Assembly: GCA_903842235.1 (NCBI GenBank)
Contig: CAIMLG010000059.1
Span: forward strand, 14,125-78,124
Direction of reading: 5' to 3'
Length of the DNA: 64,000 nucleotides
Source of the DNA: an uncultured Verrucomicrobia subdivision 3 bacterium
Lineage (GTDB): Bacteria; Verrucomicrobiota; Verrucomicrobiia; Limisphaerales; UBA11358
Below, in pieces: positions 1,189-13,009 of this stretch. The position numbers and the translations under genes are program-made. Below the pieces are notes generated by a model. It did no database searches, was not told the DNA's origin, and saw only the letters and a list, made by a program, of their open reading frames with translations. Position 1 is the first letter of the stretch. Each line of letters starts with the position of its first letter.

Positions 1189-1213
1189 ACCGATTCGACC
1201 AAGCCAAATGAAT

Positions 1214-1247
1214 AACGCGCCGGAGTGACTCCGGCGCGTTGCTTTGT
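1214..1247. terminator. bidirectional rho-independent-type hairpin
   Basis: Perfect 12-bp stem AACGCGCCGGAG/CTCCGGCGCGTT with a 3-nt loop, then GCTTTGT. Lies between convergent ORFs 991..1188(+) and 1272..1574(-). Confidence 0.65.
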
Positions 1248-1271: not shown

Positions 1272-1574
1272 CTACGCCACCGCTTCGTGTTCCTCGACGG
1301 CTTCCTGCTTGAGTTCGTCCAGCGCGCGGAAACGGCTGGCGGCAAACCCAGCCTCCACGCCGAGATTATTCGTGGGATTGTAAAGGCCCACGAGCAGCAG
1401 CGACGATTCCAGCACGCGGCGCAGGTCCATGATGAGTTCGTCCGCCCGCACGCCAACGCGCACGGCGCGGACGACGTAGATCGTCTCCAGCACCGGCAGT
1501 TGCAGGTAAAGCTGTTTAACCGTTTCCGGCCACTTATCATCCACTAAAACGACTTTTTGTCCGATGCTGAACAT
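1272..1574 (-). CDS. hypothetical protein (100 aa)
   Basis: Its ATG (1574) lies 1 nt after the TGA (1576-1578) of the upstream fusion gene, so it is probably the same operon. No family recognised. Confidence 0.5.
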   Translation of the reverse strand: MFSIGQKVVLVDDKWPETVKQLYLQLPVLETIYVVRAVRVGVRADELIMDLRRVLESSLLLVGLYNPTNNLGVEAGFAASRFRALDELKQEAVEEHEAVA

Positions 1575-1575
1575 G

Positions 1576-3753
1576 TCAGTATGGCAGCGGGAATTTCGCG
1601 GTCAAGGCACGGACGCGTTCCCGCACCTGGTGGGCGGCTTCGACATTTTTGATGTCCATGAGCACTTCCGAGATCATGTCGGCAATGGCGGCCATCTCGG
1701 CTTCCTTCATACCGCGCGTAGTGCAGGCCGGGGTGCCGAGGCGGATGCCGCTGGCTTGGAACGGCGAGCGGGTTTCGTTTGGAATGGTGTTTTTATTGAC
1801 CGTGATGCCCGCTTCGTCGAGCGCGATCTGGGCATCTTTGCCGGTGACGTCTTTGGCCCCGACATCCACCAGCATCAGATGGTTGTCCGTGCCGCCGCTG
1901 ATGAGGCGGTAACCGTTGCGTTTCATGCCTTCGGCGAGCGCGGCGGCATTGGTGACGATTTGCCGCTGGTAAGCCTGGAAGCTGGGCTGCAGGGCTTCGT
2001 GGAAGCAAACGGCCTTGCCGGCGATGACGTGTTCCAGCGGGCCGCCCTGGATGCCGGGGAACACCTGGGAATCAATGATTTTGGCGTATTTCTCGGGGCA
2101 GAGAATCAAGCCGCCGCGCGGGCCGCGCAGGGTCTTGTGCGTGGTGGTGGTGACGAAATCCGCGTGGCCGATCGGGCTGGGATGGATGCCCGCCGCGACG
2201 AGCCCGGCAATGTGCGCGATGTCGGCGAGCAGCAGGGCGCCAACTTCGCGGGCGATCTCGCCCATGCGCTGGAAATCAATGATGCGCGGATAGGCGCTGG
2301 CCCCCACGGTGATCATCTTGGGCTTATGTTCGCAGGCCATGGCGGCGAGTTGATCGTAATCAATCAGCTCGGTTTGCAGGTTCACGCCGTAGTGAACGAT
2401 CTCGAAAAACTTGCCGGAGAAATTGGCTTTGTTGCCGTGGGTTAGATGGCCGCCGTGGCTCAAGTCCATCGTCAGCATCTTGTCGCCGGGCTTGAGCAGG
2501 GCGAAATAGACGGCCATGTTCGCGCCGGAACCGGAATGCGGCTGGACGTTGGCATGATCCGCCCCGAACAGCTTTTTCGCCCGGTCAATCGCCAGTTGCT
2601 CGATGGTGTCAATGTATTCACAGCCGCCATACCAACGCTTCTTGGGATAACCTTCGGCGTATTTGTTCGTGAGCACGGAGCCTTGCGCTTCCATGACGGC
2701 CGGGCTGGTGAAGTTTTCCGACGCGATCAGCTCGATGTTTTCCTGCTGCCGCTGGCGTTCTTGGTCAATCGCCGTGGCGATTTCGGGGTCCACATTGGCC
2801 AGGCGCAGGTTGGCCGGGGCAAACTGGGTGTCCAGCTTCCGCACGCGGCGCTCGTGGCGGCCGCCCTCGGGCTTGGCCGCGAGGAAGGCGGCGAGAATCT
2901 TTTTTCCCAGCTCCGCCGAAGTTTTTTTGCCGCTCAAGCACAGGACGTTGGCGTCATTGTGCTGGCGGGAGCGCGCGGCGCCTTCCTCGTCGTCCACGAG
3001 GGCGGCGCGCACGCCGGCCACCTTGTTGGCCGCGATGCTCATGCCCACGCCGCTGGTGCAGACGAGCAGGCCGAATTCGGCCTGGCCCGCCGCCACCGCC
3101 CGGGCGGCCGCCCGGGCGAAATCCGGATAATCATCCGCCGGTTCCTTGGTGGTCGCGCCGCAATCGGTGACCGTCAGGCCGCGCTCGCGCAGGAACGCCT
3201 TGAGCGATTCCTTGAGTTCATAGCCGCCGTGGTCCGCGCCCAGCGCAAAGTTGACGAGGGCCGGGGCGGAGGGATTCGGATTTTTCGACAGGAAGTGGTG
3301 TTGTTCCATAAATTTTATCAGCGTGACGATGCCTTGCTCAATTTGGTCGCGGCAATCCTCATAGACCCGATACGAGCCGCCGATGGGATCACTTATGTCC
3401 TTTTCGTAAGGCTCCAGGGTTTCGTCAAATTCGCGCAGCAAAAAAGTTTTCTCGGCCGCCGCCGGATACAGCAACGCCACGGTGTCGGTGTGGCTGTGGG
3501 TCATGCCAAAAATAAAGTCGGCCTGTTTCACCATTTCCGTCGTGAGCGCGCGGCTGCGCTGCCGGGAGATATCCAGACCGATCTCCTGCATCGCCTGCAC
3601 AGAATGGTTCGTGGGCGGATGCCCATCCTCCGCCCCCAGCCCCGCCGAAAGGACGCGAAACTCGCCGCGCCCCCTGACCGCCTGCCGGAAAAGCCCCTCA
3701 GCCATCGGGCTGCGACAAATATTGCCGGTGCAAAGAAAAAGAATCGTTTTCAT
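1576..3753 (-). CDS. glyA: tri-domain fusion: LMW protein phosphatase + ribose-5-phosphate isomerase B + serine hydroxymethyltransferase
   Basis: No stop between 3792 and 1576; first ATG at 3753. [20 protein letters not shown] is the CX5R(S) P-loop of LMW phosphatases. [13 protein letters not shown]...[15 protein letters not shown]...[11 protein letters not shown] is RpiB/LacAB. The last ~414 aa ([31 protein letters not shown]...) are SHMT. Approximate domain limits: 3753-3300 / 3258-2827 / 2826-1576. Confidence 0.9.
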
Positions 3754-3895
3754 CAAAAACGCAAGGGGGAAAGGGTGGTTGGCCGAAGCCAAATCGTCAA
3801 TCCGAAAGGAAGGCGCGCGGCATCTTAATCGGCCGCCTAATTTTTGTCCGGCCGTGGATGATTAGACTTAAGGCGGCGGCAATCCCCGCGCGAAT

Positions 3896-4597
3896 TCAGC
3901 CGTGCGCCGGGTGGAGCAACGCCAGCGCCTTGATTAAATCCACCGCCCGCGCCAAGGCCGGATCGCGGATCACCGGCTGGGCGGGAACGGGCCGGGGCAT
4001 GGCGATGGTTTTTTCGCCGTCCTCACCGTCTTTCATCCGGCGCCGCACCAGCTCGGCCTCGCTCAGGTGATCGACGAGGACCAGCAAATCATTCGTGGCG
4101 GCGGGGGGATTGGTGCTGGCCAGCGCGGGCGTGGCGTAGGGATTATTGATCAGGGCGCGTTCGTCCGCCAAGCCGACTTTGACCGCGAGATCCGGCTGAA
4201 CGGGCCCGTCGCGGGTGGTTCCGCTGGTCGCACTGCCAAAAATCAAACCGGCGTGGGTTTTCTGCAAAAGCGCGGCCAGCGCCACCGCTGCGCCGCGCGT
4301 TTCACCGTTCACCAAAATGGCCAGCGGCGTTTTATTTATGGCAAACCAATTTGCCGCCGCCGGCACCGTCGTGCTGTCGTCGCCCGTGGCGAAACGCAGA
4401 TCCAACACGGTGCCGGCGATTGAGTTGGTGGCGGATAAAACCTTTTGGCCCGCATTGAGTTCATTCGCGAACGAGCCGTCGAGGTGGCTAACCCGAATGG
4501 CGCAAACATTCGCTTCCAACAAGGAAACTTTCAGCGCCGGCTCCGCCGCCCAGGCGGACCAAGCCGTGGCCAAGAATACTATGAAAAAGCGATTCAT
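3896..4597 (-). CDS. secreted protein with degenerate peptidase-S41-like core (function uncertain)
   Basis: Signal peptide MNRFFIVFLATAWSAWA. PLAILVNGETRGAAVALAALLQKTHAGLIFGSATSG resembles the S41 core, but the nucleophile-Ser position reads GETRGAAV in a by-eye alignment. Confidence 0.55.
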   Translation of the reverse strand: MNRFFIVFLATAWSAWAAEPALKVSLLEANVCAIRVSHLDGSFANELNAGQKVLSATNSIAGTVLDLRFATGDDSTTVPAAANWFAINKTPLAILVNGETRGAAVALAALLQKTHAGLIFGSATSGTTRDGPVQPDLAVKVGLADERALINNPYATPALASTNPPAATNDLLVLVDHLSEAELVRRRMKDGEDGEKTIAMPRPVPAQPVIRDPALARAVDLIKALALLHPAHG

Positions 4598-4909: not shown

Positions 4910-5012
4910 TGAGACAGTTTGGTGGCGGGAAGCTGCGGCGCAGCTGGTTTATATTCACCGGCCAGATCCGCGTCAAGGACGGGACTGCCCCCTGGCCGAT
5001 TCCACCCCTGAA

Positions 5013-5194: not shown

Positions 5195-7540
<2,346 letters not shown>

Positions 7541-7545
7541 CCGCC

Positions 7546-7564
7546 GGGCGGCCGCGGGCCGCCC
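7546..7564 (+). terminator. GC hairpin after katG (weak terminator candidate)
   Basis: gggcggcc-gcg-ggccgccc 6 nt after the katG stop; no T-tract follows. Confidence 0.3.
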
Positions 7565-7662
7565 ATTCAAGGAACCGGCGGCCAGCGGCTTGCTTCGGAA
7601 AGCTGCGGCGACGGATTTTTTGAATTGCCAATCCCCGTCGCCAGTCGGCACTCTGAGCGCAC

Positions 7663-8259
7663 ATGAATTTGCCCAACAAACTCACCGCCTCGCGGTTTGT
7701 GCTGACGGTGGTTTTTCTCTGGGCCATGTTTTCCCAGTTTGCCTACAACGACACGCTGGCGCTGATTTTCTTCTGCCTCGCCGGCGTGACGGATTTTCTG
7801 GATGGGCGGATCGCCCGCGCCCGGAAGCTCATCACCAATTTCGGCAAATTGATGGATCCGCTCGCGGACAAGATCATGACCTGCTCCGCCTTCATCGCGT
7901 TTGTGGAAAGCACGCATCGGAATCCCGAGGCGCCGGTGAAAGTGGGGGCGTGGATGGTGGTGATCATTGTCGGGCGCGAACTGGCCATCACCGGGCTGCG
8001 GCTGCTGGCGGCCTCCAAGAACATCGTGCTCTCGGCGGAGCGCTTTGGCAAACACAAGACCATTTCGCAGATCGTCGCCATCATCGCGCTGCTGGTGGTG
8101 GATGCCCGGGGCGAATGGCCCGCGGCCCTGCAAACCGTCTTTGGCGCCTGGGTGCCGGTCTTTGCCGAGATCATGCTATGGATGACGGTGGCGCTGACGG
8201 TGGCTTCCGGCGTGATTTACCTCCGGCGCAACCGGGCGCTGTATCTGACCGACATGTGA
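7663..8259 (+). CDS. pgsA: CDP-diacylglycerol--glycerol-3-phosphate 3-phosphatidyltransferase
   Basis: CDP-alcohol phosphatidyltransferase motif DFLDGRIARARKLITNFGKLMDPLADK; multiple TM helices; ~198 aa. Confidence 0.9.
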   Translation: MNLPNKLTASRFVLTVVFLWAMFSQFAYNDTLALIFFCLAGVTDFLDGRIARARKLITNFGKLMDPLADKIMTCSAFIAFVESTHRNPEAPVKVGAWMVVIIVGRELAITGLRLLAASKNIVLSAERFGKHKTISQIVAIIALLVVDARGEWPAALQTVFGAWVPVFAEIMLWMTVALTVASGVIYLRRNRALYLTDM

Positions 8260-9689: not shown

Positions 9690-11102
9690 ATGCAAAAACA
9701 ACCCTCCACGGCACGCCCGCTGGGTTGGCTGAACCGCCGGCATTTCTTAAAAGCCGCCGGGGCCGCCTTGGTGCTGCCGGCCATCCTACCGGGTTGCACC
9801 ATGAGCGCCCCCCGCCGTCCCCGGGCCGCCAACCGCATCACCTTGGGCGTGATTGGCTGGGGCATGCAGGGGCCGGGCAACACAAGGAATTTCCTAAATG
9901 AAGCGGATTGTCAGGTAATCGCCGCCTGCGATTTAGATGCCAACCGACTGGCCAAAGCCGTCAGCACCGTCAACGAGCACTACAATAACCGGGATTGCAA
10001 GGCTTACCATGATTTCCGCGAGATGTTTGAGCGCGAAGACCTCGACGCCGTGATGATCGCCGTGCCGGATCACTGGCATGGAATCGTCGCCACCGAGGCC
10101 GCCCGCCACAAACTGGACATCTACGGCGAGAAACCGCTGGCCAAAACCATCGCGGAACAGCAGGCCATCGTCCGCGCCGTGGAGAAAAATAACGTCATCT
10201 GGCAGACCGGTTCGTGGCAGCGCTCGCAGGCGCTCTTCCGCAAGGCGGCGGAAATTGTGCGCAACGGATTGATCGGCGAGGTCACCCACGTCGAGGTCGG
10301 CCTGCCCGCCGGACATCACGATTTTCCCAGCACCACCCCCGAACTGCTGGCCAAACTGAAGCCGCTGGGCATCACCAGCCTCGCCGACGTCGTCCCCGGC
10401 ACCGAGGCGTGGAACCTCGCCGTCAGCGAACCCCCGACCGGCTTGGACTACAATTTCTGGATCGGCCCGTCCAAGATGGAGCCCTACATCGCACAACGCG
10501 TTTATCAAAACTGGCGCTGGAACTTCAACACCGGCGGCGGCCAGTTGCTCGACTGGGTCGGGCATCATTGCGACATTGCGCACTGGGGGATGGACTGCGA
10601 CCGTTCCGGCCCGGATGAAGTCGAAGGGCACGGCGATTTCCCGCCGGCCAACGCCGTGTGGAACACCGCCACCAAATACCGGATTGAACTGAAGTATCCA
10701 CACGACATCATCATGACCATCGCGGGCGGCTATCCCGACATCCGCAGCGGCACCAAGTGGATCGGCACGGACGGCTGGGTCTGGGTGGATCGCGGCGGGT
10801 TTGACTGTTCCAATCCGGAATTGAAAAAAGGCAAATCGCTGCCGGAGGCGCTCCGCAAAGTGAAGCTTTACGAATCTCCCGGCCATCAGCGGAATTTTCT
10901 CGACTGCGTCAAATCCCGGAAACCCACGATCACGCCGGTGGAAACGGCGCATCATTCCACGATTCCCGGCCATCTGGGTCTAATCTCCATGCTGGTGGGT
11001 CGCAAGTTGCATTGGGACGCCAAATCTGAGAAAATCCACAACGACAGCGAGGCCAGTCAACTGCTGACCCGGCCCTACCGGGCGCCGTGGCACCTGGCGT
11101 GA
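9690..11102 (+). CDS. Gfo/Idh/MocA family oxidoreductase with twin-arginine signal
   Basis: NRRHFLKAAGAALVLPA TAT-type signal, Rossmann LGVIGWGMQG, YGEKPLA motif. Confidence 0.9.
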   Translation: MQKQPSTARPLGWLNRRHFLKAAGAALVLPAILPGCTMSAPRRPRAANRITLGVIGWGMQGPGNTRNFLNEADCQVIAACDLDANRLAKAVSTVNEHYNNRDCKAYHDFREMFEREDLDAVMIAVPDHWHGIVATEAARHKLDIYGEKPLAKTIAEQQAIVRAVEKNNVIWQTGSWQRSQALFRKAAEIVRNGLIGEVTHVEVGLPAGHHDFPSTTPELLAKLKPLGITSLADVVPGTEAWNLAVSEPPTGLDYNFWIGPSKMEPYIAQRVYQNWRWNFNTGGGQLLDWVGHHCDIAHWGMDCDRSGPDEVEGHGDFPPANAVWNTATKYRIELKYPHDIIMTIAGGYPDIRSGTKWIGTDGWVWVDRGGFDCSNPELKKGKSLPEALRKVKLYESPGHQRNFLDCVKSRKPTITPVETAHHSTIPGHLGLISMLVGRKLHWDAKSEKIHNDSEASQLLTRPYRAPWHLA

Positions 11103-11120
11103 CCCCGATTTTAATTAACC

Positions 11121-11675
11121 ATGAACGACGCGACTGACAAAAAACAAACGGACTCCAACGGCAGTTCCGGCTGCTGCAACTGTGACTATTCGCTGGCGTT
11201 TCTGCTGCTGCGCGGCTGGCTCGGCATGCGCGCCCTGGTCACCGGCCTGGAAAAATTCGGCGCCTACAAGACGGTGCAGCAACAGCTGCTGGATCCGGCC
11301 ACGGGACAGCCGGACGCCAGCGGGGCGCTGGTGGAACTCAAGGTAAAATATTATGCGATGGCGAATTACTCGGGCATCCCGGCAGGCTTGAAAGGCAAGT
11401 TCGCCAACGAAGCCTTGCTGCCACATTTTGCCCTGACCGCGTTTAACGCGCTGCTCGGCCCCGCGCTCCTCGCGACGGGCCTCATGCTGTTGCTCGGCTT
11501 GGGCACGCGGCTCTCCCTGTTCCTGCAAGGCGTGATCTACATCCTGCTGACCGTCGGCCTGATTCTGATCCATCAAGACGACGGCATCTCCTGGCTGGGC
11601 GTCCACCTGGCGCTCATCACGCTGGCCTTGATGCTGGCCAAACACAACAAACTTGCCCTGCTCAAAAAATGGTAA
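11121..11675 (+). CDS. membrane protein, DoxX-like (tentative)
   Basis: Three or four hydrophobic helices (LAFLLLRGWLGMRALV..., LLGPALLATGLMLLLGLG...). Overlaps the next gene by 7 nt. Confidence 0.55.
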   Translation: MNDATDKKQTDSNGSSGCCNCDYSLAFLLLRGWLGMRALVTGLEKFGAYKTVQQQLLDPATGQPDASGALVELKVKYYAMANYSGIPAGLKGKFANEALLPHFALTAFNALLGPALLATGLMLLLGLGTRLSLFLQGVIYILLTVGLILIHQDDGISWLGVHLALITLALMLAKHNKLALLKKW

Positions 11676-13009
11676 AGCCCAATTTCACCCGGCGCGAATT
11701 CCTCGGCACCACCGCCGTGGCCGGCGCCGGCCTGCTGCTGGCCTCCTGCAGTCCGAACCAGCCCAAAGCCCCCGGCGCCAAGAGCACCCTGAGCCAGCTC
11801 AACATCGCCCTCATCGGCTGCGGCGCGGAAGGCCAGGTGCTGCTCGAATCCCTGCTGGTGATCGAGGGCATCCGCCTCGTGGCCATCGTGGACATCTGGG
11901 ATTACAACCGCGACAGCAATGTCCGCCGGCTCAAGAGCCAGGGCATCGAGGTGAAGAGCTACGAGAACTACGAGGATTTGTTGGCGCACGAAAAAGATCT
12001 GCAAGCCGTGATCGTCGCCACGCCGGATTTCTGGCACGCGCCCATCACCAATGCCTGCCTCCAGGCCGGCCTCCATGTGTATTGCGAGAAGATGATGAGC
12101 AATACCATCGAAGGCGCCCGCTCCATGGTGCAAACCATGCGGGCCACCGGCAAGCTGCTGCAAATCGGCCACCAGCGCCGCAGCAACCCGCGCTACATGT
12201 TTGCACTCAACCGGCTGGTGAATGACGCCAAAATCTGCGGCCGGCTCACCGCCGCCAACGGGCAGTGGAACCGCGCCGTGTCCGAAGATTTCGGCTGGCC
12301 GAAGAAATTCGCCCTGTCGGCGGAAATGCTCGCCAAATACGGCTACAAGGACATGCATCAATTCCGCAACTGGCGCTGGTTCAAGGCGCTTGGCGGCGGG
12401 CCCCTGTCCGATCTGGGCGCCCATCAGATTGATATTTTCAACTGGTGGTTCGGCATGGCCCCCACTTCGGTGATGGCCAGCGGCGGCGTGGATTACTACA
12501 AGAACCACGAATGGTATGACCACGCCATGGTCATTTACGAATACCCGCTGCCCACCGGCACCGTGCGGGCCTTCTACGAAGTGCTCACCACCACCAGCGC
12601 CGGCGGCGGCTATTCCGAGATGTTCATGGGCGACGAGGGCACCATCAAGATGTCCGAGAACCCCAGCATCACCAAGCTTTACCGCGAAGACCGCGCCCCG
12701 GCCTGGGATGAACTCGTGGCCAAGAACTATCTCCGCGCCAGCGCCGTGGCCGCCGCCAGCACGGAGGCCGACAAGGTGGATGTCCGGGAAACCGCTCCCC
12801 TGCTCCAGTATGACATTCCGGTGTCCTTCGCCAAAAAGATTCACCAGCCGCACCTGGAGAATTTCTTTAACGCCATTCGCGACCAGAAAGTAAAATTGAA
12901 CTGCCCCGCCGACGAGGCCTTCGCCAGCGAATACGTCATTCACAAGGCCAACGAAGCCATTGCCGCCCGCAAAACCATTGAAATCACCGCCGCCGAAACC
13001 AAAGCCTGA
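11669..13009 (+). CDS. Gfo/Idh/MocA family oxidoreductase with twin-arginine signal
   Basis: TRREFLGTTAVAGAGLLLASC signal, Rossmann IALIGCGAEGQ, VYCEKMMS motif. Confidence 0.9.
   Translation: MVKPNFTRREFLGTTAVAGAGLLLASCSPNQPKAPGAKSTLSQLNIALIGCGAEGQVLLESLLVIEGIRLVAIVDIWDYNRDSNVRRLKSQGIEVKSYENYEDLLAHEKDLQAVIVATPDFWHAPITNACLQAGLHVYCEKMMSNTIEGARSMVQTMRATGKLLQIGHQRRSNPRYMFALNRLVNDAKICGRLTAANGQWNRAVSEDFGWPKKFALSAEMLAKYGYKDMHQFRNWRWFKALGGGPLSDLGAHQIDIFNWWFGMAPTSVMASGGVDYYKNHEWYDHAMVIYEYPLPTGTVRAFYEVLTTTSAGGGYSEMFMGDEGTIKMSENPSITKLYREDRAPAWDELVAKNYLRASAVAAASTEADKVDVRETAPLLQYDIPVSFAKKIHQPHLENFFNAIRDQKVKLNCPADEAFASEYVIHKANEAIAARKTIEITAAETKA

Follow-up and report, generated by a model that had tools for sequence, protein, structure and literature searches.

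A single open reading frame in a Verrucomicrobia subdivision 3 bacterium joins a low-molecular-weight phosphatase, ribose-5-phosphate isomerase B and serine hydroxymethyltransferase

We analyzed a 64-kb window, that is, the whole stretch of 64,000 nucleotides taken from contig CAIMLG010000059.1 of an uncultured Verrucomicrobia subdivision 3 bacterium (GenBank assembly GCA_903842235.1), and focus here on a minus-strand gene that joins a protein tyrosine phosphatase of low molecular weight (LMW-PTP), a ribose-5-phosphate isomerase B (RpiB) and a serine hydroxymethyltransferase (SHMT). A preliminary description of this DNA had reported all three families within one stop-free open reading frame (ORF), and the ORF listing, Pfam and NCBIfam bear this out: a single minus-strand ORF occupies 1576..3792 (738 aa counted from the TTG at 3792), and the full-length Pfam domains LMWPc, LacAB_rpiB and SHMT follow one another along it. 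Judging from the alignment of relatives, translation starts at the ATG at 3753 and not at the TTG at 3792: the orthologues begin to match at MK(T)ILF, and upstream of this point the sequence is not conserved. The ATG gives a 725-aa protein with an expected mass of ~79 kDa. Residues are numbered from this ATG; domain positions from the Pfam scan use the 738-aa numbering, from which 13 is subtracted to reach ATG numbering. The gene and its parts are as follows.

1576..3753, minus strand: tri-domain gene (LMW-PTP, RpiB, SHMT), complete, 725 aa plus stop; from the ORF listing, Pfam and NCBIfam
3319..3744, minus strand: LMW-PTP domain, residues 4-145; Pfam PF01451, closest structures 4egs and YwlE 4kk3
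3709..3732, minus strand: phosphatase P-loop CTGNICRS, Cys8 to Ser15, with Ile at position 5; read from the sequence
3253..3306, minus strand: linker 1, approximately residues 150-167, variable in sequence and length and predicted to be disordered; from the alignment and AlphaFold
2833..3246, minus strand: RpiB domain, residues 170-307; Pfam PF02502 and TIGR01120
2800..2832, minus strand: linker 2, approximately residues 308-318, short, predicted to be helical, with no conserved Met; from alignments and AlphaFold
1579..2799, minus strand: SHMT domain, residues 319-725; Pfam PF00464 and NF000586

Pfam matched all three domains over their full length. The phosphatase domain matched LMWPc (PF01451) at 113.4 bits, against a cutoff of 23.2, over residues 17-158 in the 738-aa numbering and profile positions 1-143 of 144; both the C-X5-R-(S/T) P-loop (residues 8-15) and the Asp-Pro general acid (D122-P123) are present. 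The central domain matched LacAB_rpiB (PF02502) at 169 bits (residues 183-320, 738-aa numbering) and passed the rpiB equivalog model TIGR01120 (149.4 bits, cutoff 138.65), and the LacA/LacB and actinobacterial RPI models scored below their own cutoffs on it. It carries Asp174/His175, Cys232 (codon 3060-3058), His265 and Arg299/His300/Arg303; we take the corresponding motifs (the Asp/His of DHGG, the active-site Cys, HN(D/N)AN and GGRHxxR) to be functional, as in Escherichia coli RpiB. The C-terminal domain matched the SHMT family (PF00464) at 557 bits (residues 332-707, 738-aa numbering) and model NF000586 at 646 bits, against a cutoff of 335, over profile positions 1-403 of 404. SHMT chains in the Protein Data Bank (PDB) matched the whole of this domain, at up to 561 bits, and the Lys540 that binds pyridoxal 5'-phosphate (PLP; codon 2136-2134) sits in a TTTTHK motif. 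No second PTP, RpiB or SHMT copy was found within the 64-kb window; we rejected a weak extra "PTP" match at 7127-7681 (minus strand) as noise, as it lies antisense to a peroxidase-family ORF.

The three-domain form proved to be common. In a search of a collection of 5.8 billion proteins, the best 120 clusters all carried the three Pfam domains (83-100% identity, 709-726 aa), and a protein in public collections (P0001) is 100% identical to that of the window. A second search, seeded with P0123, a relative at 45% identity, recovered all three domains in 118 of its best 120 clusters, some of them named Lentisphaerae and Verrucomicrobia. Among representatives at 50% identity, three tri-domain clusters (P0121, P0123 and P0186, at 60%, 45% and 39% identity) stood alongside several two-domain RpiB-SHMT clusters. 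Homologues with the same architecture run to hundreds and come from independent NCBI, ENA, JGI and Logan assemblies. One tri-domain gene, 78% identical to that of the window, lies on a contig labelled 'uncultured Bifidobacteriaceae bacterium' (L002, CAZCZP010000001.1), which is probably a mis-binned verrucomicrobial contig.

The catalytic residues are almost unchanged across this family. We aligned 94 tri-domain homologues at 52-87% identity, an alignment that also served as input to an AlphaFold2 model. Of the 94, 93 have the P-loop residues Cys8, Cys13, Arg14 and Ser15 (the remaining row is gapped), and all 94 keep phosphatase Asp122, RpiB Asp174, His175, Cys232, His265, Arg299 and Arg303, and SHMT His539 and Lys540; His300 is also invariant. 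The catalytic residues of all three domains are likewise kept in 13 species-level orthologues. As an observation apart from this alignment, the divergent cluster P0186 (683 aa, 39% identity) reads GGTGATMRGPG in place of the SHMT motif TTTHKxLRGPRGG. It seems to have lost the PLP lysine together with several other conserved residues, and may represent a tri-domain protein with a degenerate SHMT domain.

Database records of the family need to be read with care. The name of an entry refers to just one of its domains ("ribose 5-phosphate isomerase B", "glycine hydroxymethyltransferase" or "RpiB/LacA/LacB family sugar-phosphate isomerase"), and about one in ten of the close relatives listed starts 16 codons late, at the Met of SPMAEG, which cuts off the catalytic Cys-X5-Arg loop. 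We considered whether the 709-aa database forms are variants without a P-loop and rejected this; they are start-codon miscalls, because in L081 the DNA upstream of the called start keeps, in frame, both an ATG and a CTGNVCRS P-loop (4953-5003; ATG AAA ACT ATT ... TGC ACC GGC AAC GTT TGC CGC).

Among homologues, the spacing from Ile138 to Asp174, across linker 1, ranges from 29 to 45 residues, and that from Lys306 to Asp322, across linker 2, from 12 to 23; such differences in length and sequence are as expected for tethers. The AlphaFold2 model of the tri-domain protein had a mean predicted local distance difference test score (pLDDT) of 88.2 and a predicted template modelling score (pTM) of 0.67, and pLDDT fell below 50 only at residues 158-165 of the linker and in one SHMT loop. 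The model and the conserved residues fit three independently folded, active modules, the first of them on a flexible tether. A search of the PDB found no chain covering two of the three domains.

We then considered what kind of phosphatase the first domain is. Its best structural matches were PDB 4egs, followed by the YwlE entries 4kk3 and 1zgg (~88 bits for both); other solved LMW-PTPs scored lower (Wzb ~56 bits, PtpA and YfkJ ~44 bits), which places YwlE closest to it by similarity. A thioredoxin-coupled arsenate reductase (ArsC) was rejected, as the domain scored below the cutoffs of both models (NF010053, 63 bits against 215; TIGR02691, 59 against 174). Published work on YwlE, Staphylococcus aureus PtpB and Drosophila DARP shows that specificity for phospho-arginine is favored by a Thr at position 5 of the P-loop, and that changing this Thr to Ile reduces phospho-arginine activity and increases activity on phospho-tyrosine or para-nitrophenyl phosphate. 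The P-loop of both 4egs and Bacillus subtilis YwlE is CTGNTCRS, with this Thr, whereas that of the window protein is CTGNICRS, with Ile. By its sequence, then, the phosphatase domain is a YwlE-subfamily descendant in which the one sequence-based test of specificity as an arginine phosphatase is negative. Position 5 is Ile or Val in 12 of the 13 tri-domain loci described below and Thr in 18 of 20 unfused relatives; it is mixed among loci that have a separate phosphatase and a fused RpiB-SHMT, and across the 94 homologues it is Val in 44, Ile in 27, Thr in 13 and Ser in 5. A phosphatase with Ile or Val here would have some substrate that is not phospho-arginine, phospho-tyrosine being the simplest candidate.

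To place the gene in its wider context, a profile of the PTP-RpiB-junction region was scanned over one genome per GTDB species, and 80 loci were classified by placing the three domains in stop-to-stop ORFs. One stop-free ORF held all three domains at 13 loci (L001-L011, L013 and L014) from Verrucomicrobiae, Pedosphaera, Limisphaera, Chthoniobacterales and Spartobacteria. At 10 loci, for example in Akkermansiaceae, Roseibacillus and Lentisphaerae, a separate phosphatase precedes a fused RpiB-SHMT, and at five (L041, L043, L045, L046 and L048, including Akkermansia muciniphila) RpiB-SHMT has no adjacent phosphatase. The PTP and RpiB domains are fused with no SHMT in the chain at four loci of Bacillota and Halanaerobiales (L015, L024, L035 and L038). 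Separate but adjacent ptp, rpiB and glyA genes occur in Bacillota, Planctomycetota and Desulfovibrio loci, in agreement with the proposal of the preliminary description that the gene is a fusion of a conserved neighborhood; in Acidobacteriota, Alphaproteobacteria and Sericytochromatia, rpiB and glyA are adjacent but separate. Many rpiB/glyA pairs are split by a single in-frame stop, bearing in mind that the tblastn ranking favors same-frame neighbors.

Fusion also extends to the other side of the phosphatase. In three of four ORFs tested, it is joined to an N-terminal Sua5/YciO/YrdC (TsaC) domain, as follows (the sources are a 'bacterium' metagenome-assembled genome [MAG], a Pirellulales MAG and a Verrucomicrobiota MAG).

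L017, 3260-4453: Sua5-PTP fusion
L025, 3233-4468: Sua5-PTP fusion
L047, 3374-4465: Sua5-PTP fusion

In a crude neighbor-joining tree of the RpiB and SHMT region, drawn without support values, all RpiB-SHMT fusions fell in one clade of the Planctomycetes-Verrucomicrobia-Chlamydiae (PVC) group, and the tri-domain form appeared in three sub-clades, mixed among forms with an unfused phosphatase. This suggests one RpiB-SHMT fusion, with the phosphatase fusion gained or lost repeatedly. The B. subtilis-like gene string tsaC-ptp-rpiB-glyA is old and has been fused at every junction in some lineage, because the separate, Sua5-PTP, PTP-RpiB and RpiB-SHMT forms occur in different lineages. Fusion at every junction fits an opportunistic joining of tightly packed, co-expressed neighbors at least as well as it fits a specific three-way mechanism, and any functional link of phosphatase, pentose-phosphate and one-carbon metabolism read from the fusion would be hypothetical.

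Several known systems resemble the window gene in part. In B. subtilis-type ywlC(tsaC)-ywlE-ywlF(rpiB)-...-glyA strings, the same three families stand in the same order, but as separate genes (Bacillus, Marinococcus, Macrococcus, Desulfitobacterium and others). The two-domain RpiB-SHMT fusions of A. muciniphila, Akkermansiaceae, Roseibacillus, Lentisphaerae and others share the second junction and, in the crude tree, the clade; in them the phosphatase is upstream and separate, fused to Sua5 or not in the neighborhood, whereas in the window it is part of the chain. The PTP-RpiB fusions of Bacillota and Halanaerobiales have the LMW-PTP N-terminal to RpiB, as in the window, but lack SHMT in the chain and have Thr in the P-loop. 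In addition, PDB entry 4egs, which has the LMW-PTP fold, was deposited as 'Ribose 5-phosphate isomerase RpiB'; going by that name, the gene from which it comes probably fuses PTP and RpiB naturally and was annotated for its RpiB part.

Also among the closest known systems is Minf_1669 of Methylacidiphilum infernorum V4, which was described as a tri-domain protein by Hou et al. (2008, Biol Direct 3:26, PMC2474590), who suggested that the serine and pentose-phosphate pathways are linked; a reviewer of that paper doubted that a serine cycle operates in M. infernorum. By the published description, Minf_1669 has the same three-domain make-up as the window protein and comes from the same phylum, but from another order and from an acidophilic methanotroph; it has been remarked on in print and never characterized. 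A more recent paper (Life 2026, PMC13608581) noted an additional SHMT domain on the ribose-5-phosphate isomerases of Limisphaera and stated that other verrucomicrobia, among them M. infernorum, have RpiB-SHMT enzymes of this kind. The Limisphaera MAG SKYG106 of that paper corresponds to our locus L006, where we find a full PTP-RpiB-SHMT ORF 69% identical to the window protein; the paper mentions the RpiB and SHMT parts only and covers neither the phosphatase domain nor biochemistry. Our literature search turned up no work on the biochemistry, structure or genetics of the fused protein. The preliminary description was not aware of any characterization of the link that the fusion predicts, and the novelty that this implies falls on the hundreds of three-domain clusters and on the 2008 and 2026 papers: the tri-domain architecture is typical of, and abundant in, Verrucomicrobiota and Lentisphaerota and has been in print since 2008.

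Taken together, we consider it very likely that the ORF is a real multi-enzyme gene, conserved in Verrucomicrobiota/Lentisphaerota, formed from the gene string (tsaC/sua5)-ptp-rpiB-glyA and encoding one chain with three modules. The fusion would have arisen when stop and start signals were lost from between neighboring genes of this string, which consists of (tsaC/sua5), a ywlE-like ptp, rpiB and glyA. Translation from the ATG at 3753 would give one ~79-kDa chain of three independently folded, catalytically intact modules, so that all three activities would reside in one polypeptide. The first would be a YwlE-family low-molecular-weight phosphatase, tethered by a flexible linker of ~16 residues; the second, ribose-5-phosphate isomerase B, would interconvert ribose-5-phosphate and ribulose-5-phosphate; and the third, joined to RpiB by a short helical connector, would be an SHMT that interconverts serine plus tetrahydrofolate and glycine plus 5,10-methylene-tetrahydrofolate. 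RpiB and SHMT are obligate dimers in solved homologues, and in the fused protein they would drive assembly of a homo-oligomer. The benefit may be that two housekeeping enzymes, both of which feed nucleotide synthesis, are made together at a constant 1:1 ratio: ribose-5-phosphate would serve phosphoribosyl pyrophosphate, and glycine and one-carbon units would serve purines and thymidylate.

Some points weigh against this interpretation or parts of it. In 72 of 94 diverse homologues, a Met-Lys is retained at the ancestral RpiB start (MKIAIGADHGG), and in some other lineages a two-domain product might be made by internal initiation. The pTM of 0.67 sets no fixed inter-domain arrangement. The Ile/Val versus Thr difference at P-loop position 5 tracks lineage as much as fusion state, and the unfused L012, L040 and L042 likewise have Ile or Val. 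Finally, for every member of the family we infer the domain activities, the product size and the oligomeric state, and the proposed benefit for nucleotide supply is argued from what is known of the pathways.

One alternative goes beyond co-expression and assigns the fusion a specific mechanism, in which the phosphatase would regulate RpiB or SHMT in cis or act on a sugar phosphate or small phospho-metabolite, or intermediates would be channelled between the domains. In Bacillota, Planctomycetota and the PVC group alike, a catalytically intact phosphatase stands next to rpiB or is fused to it, PTP-RpiB fusions arose independently in Bacillota/Halanaerobiales (the four loci given above), an LMW-PTP-fold structure (4egs) was deposited under the RpiB name, and the switch from Thr to Ile/Val suggests a changed substrate. 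Set against this, RpiB and SHMT share no metabolite, so that from pathway knowledge there is nothing obvious to channel; the phosphatase is also fused to its other neighbor, Sua5/TsaC, which argues for neighbor fusion without a specific partner; and Akkermansia and several other lineages have RpiB-SHMT without an adjacent phosphatase. We regard a specific mechanism as unlikely. A fuller version, in which the YwlE-derived phosphatase, its specificity changed by the Thr-to-Ile/Val switch, would act in cis on a phospho-residue of RpiB or SHMT or on a phospho-metabolite, and a regulated oligomer would coordinate the supply of ribose-5-phosphate with that of one-carbon units and glycine to nucleotide synthesis, seems to us more doubtful still.

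A second alternative holds that the ORF is continuous but that separate or two-domain proteins arise from it by internal initiation or by cleavage of a linker, making the fusion genetic and not physical. The Met-Lys retained exactly at the ancestral RpiB start speaks for it (in other lineages this Met could be a relic or a working start), as does linker 1, which is predicted to be disordered and so accessible to proteases. The picture differs in the window's clade, where the ancestral RpiB start is Val in the window (VNFALG) and T, K, I or P in relatives, and not Met. The preliminary description had stated that neither junction contains a stop or an ATG and that a GTG at NVDPEI is the only internal start possible before SHMT, and a codon scan agrees: between residues 140 and 345, outside the RpiB core, the only in-frame ATG, GTG or TTG codons are the ATG of Met149, which falls inside the last PTP helix, and the GTG of Val321 in NVDPEI (window position 2793). 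No Shine-Dalgarno-like sequence was seen upstream of Met149 or Val321, and neither candidate is conserved; at the SHMT boundary, the window's clade conserves neither a Met nor a Val.

A promoter scan also returned one match in this region.

3312-3341, minus strand: sigma-70-like match TTGAGC-18-TAAAAT with TG, within the C-terminal helix of the phosphatase

Lying just upstream of Met149, this match could be read in favor of a separate product, and we considered it as a promoter for an RpiB-SHMT protein. Its -10 element, however, ends 2 nt before the Met149 ATG (3309), too close for an mRNA that includes this ATG; there is no usable start downstream, and chance alone would be expected to give ~0.8 matches of this kind in the region covered by the scan. 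We rejected it and judge it to be a chance match because Met149 is not conserved. Since no start codon is conserved at either boundary within the window's clade, the full-length chain of ~79 kDa is the expected product of the window gene, and separate products appear improbable.

A third proposal, that of Hou et al. (PMC2474590) for M. infernorum, would explain the fusion as a methylotrophic adaptation by which the serine cycle is coupled with the pentose-phosphate or ribulose pathways. The architecture is, however, widely distributed among lineages that are not known for methanotrophy (Pedosphaera, Limisphaera, Chthoniobacterales and Lentisphaerae), Limisphaera being carbohydrate users (PMC13608581), and the reviewer's doubt about the serine cycle applies even to M. 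infernorum; we consider this explanation very unlikely. Lastly, although a locus with the PTP part in another frame than RpiB-SHMT (L064) shows that frame errors or real fissions occur, an assembly or sequencing artefact merging three genes can be dismissed with near certainty, because the architecture is conserved across independent assemblies, with hundreds of homologues uninterrupted down to 45% identity, 13 GTDB species sharing the uninterrupted ORF and linkers that stay in frame despite their differing lengths.

The neighborhood of the tri-domain gene contains the following further features.

3896..4597, minus strand: 233-aa gene upstream of the tri-domain gene, with a weak partial Peptidase_S41 match at residues 88-128
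1272..1574, minus strand: 100-aa ORF whose first codon lies 1 nt past the tri-domain stop (TGAcATG); no Pfam match
1213..1241, both strands: hairpin with a 13-pair stem, TAACGCGCCGGAG-TGA-CTCCGGCGCGTTG

The 233-aa upstream neighbor is conserved in L001, L003-L005, L008, L081 and L082. The 100-aa ORF, which is probably co-transcribed with the tri-domain gene, is strongly conserved in place in two close relatives, L081 and L082 (E ~1e-57), and is absent from more distant tri-domain loci. The hairpin is probably a terminator that closes a transcription unit made up of the S41-like gene, the tri-domain gene and the 100-aa ORF. Further out, ~1.5 kb upstream and divergent to the tri-domain gene, a 769-aa ORF (5231-7540, plus strand) contains two peroxidase-family stretches of the catalase-peroxidase (KatG) type. 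At L081, a Cas9-like gene (10013-12130; HNH_4 and RuvC_III, >1000 aa) lies ~3 kb downstream of the tri-domain gene.

As a finding from a genome scan, the gene is nothing categorically new, the architecture being abundant, present in databases and remarked on in print; the Ile or Val at position 5 of the phosphatase, against the Thr of the YwlE type, is one small new point. There is also a lesson for annotation, in that genes of this family are labelled by one domain and some starts are called short, which removes the P-loop. If the fused protein has three activities, it would be a natural "Rosetta-stone" case, and, if true, this would support a functional association of YwlE-like phosphatases with the housekeeping genes rpiB and glyA, an association that is also visible as gene order across several phyla. 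The fused protein would then offer a convenient single protein with which to ask what role such phosphatases play outside Gram-positive bacteria.

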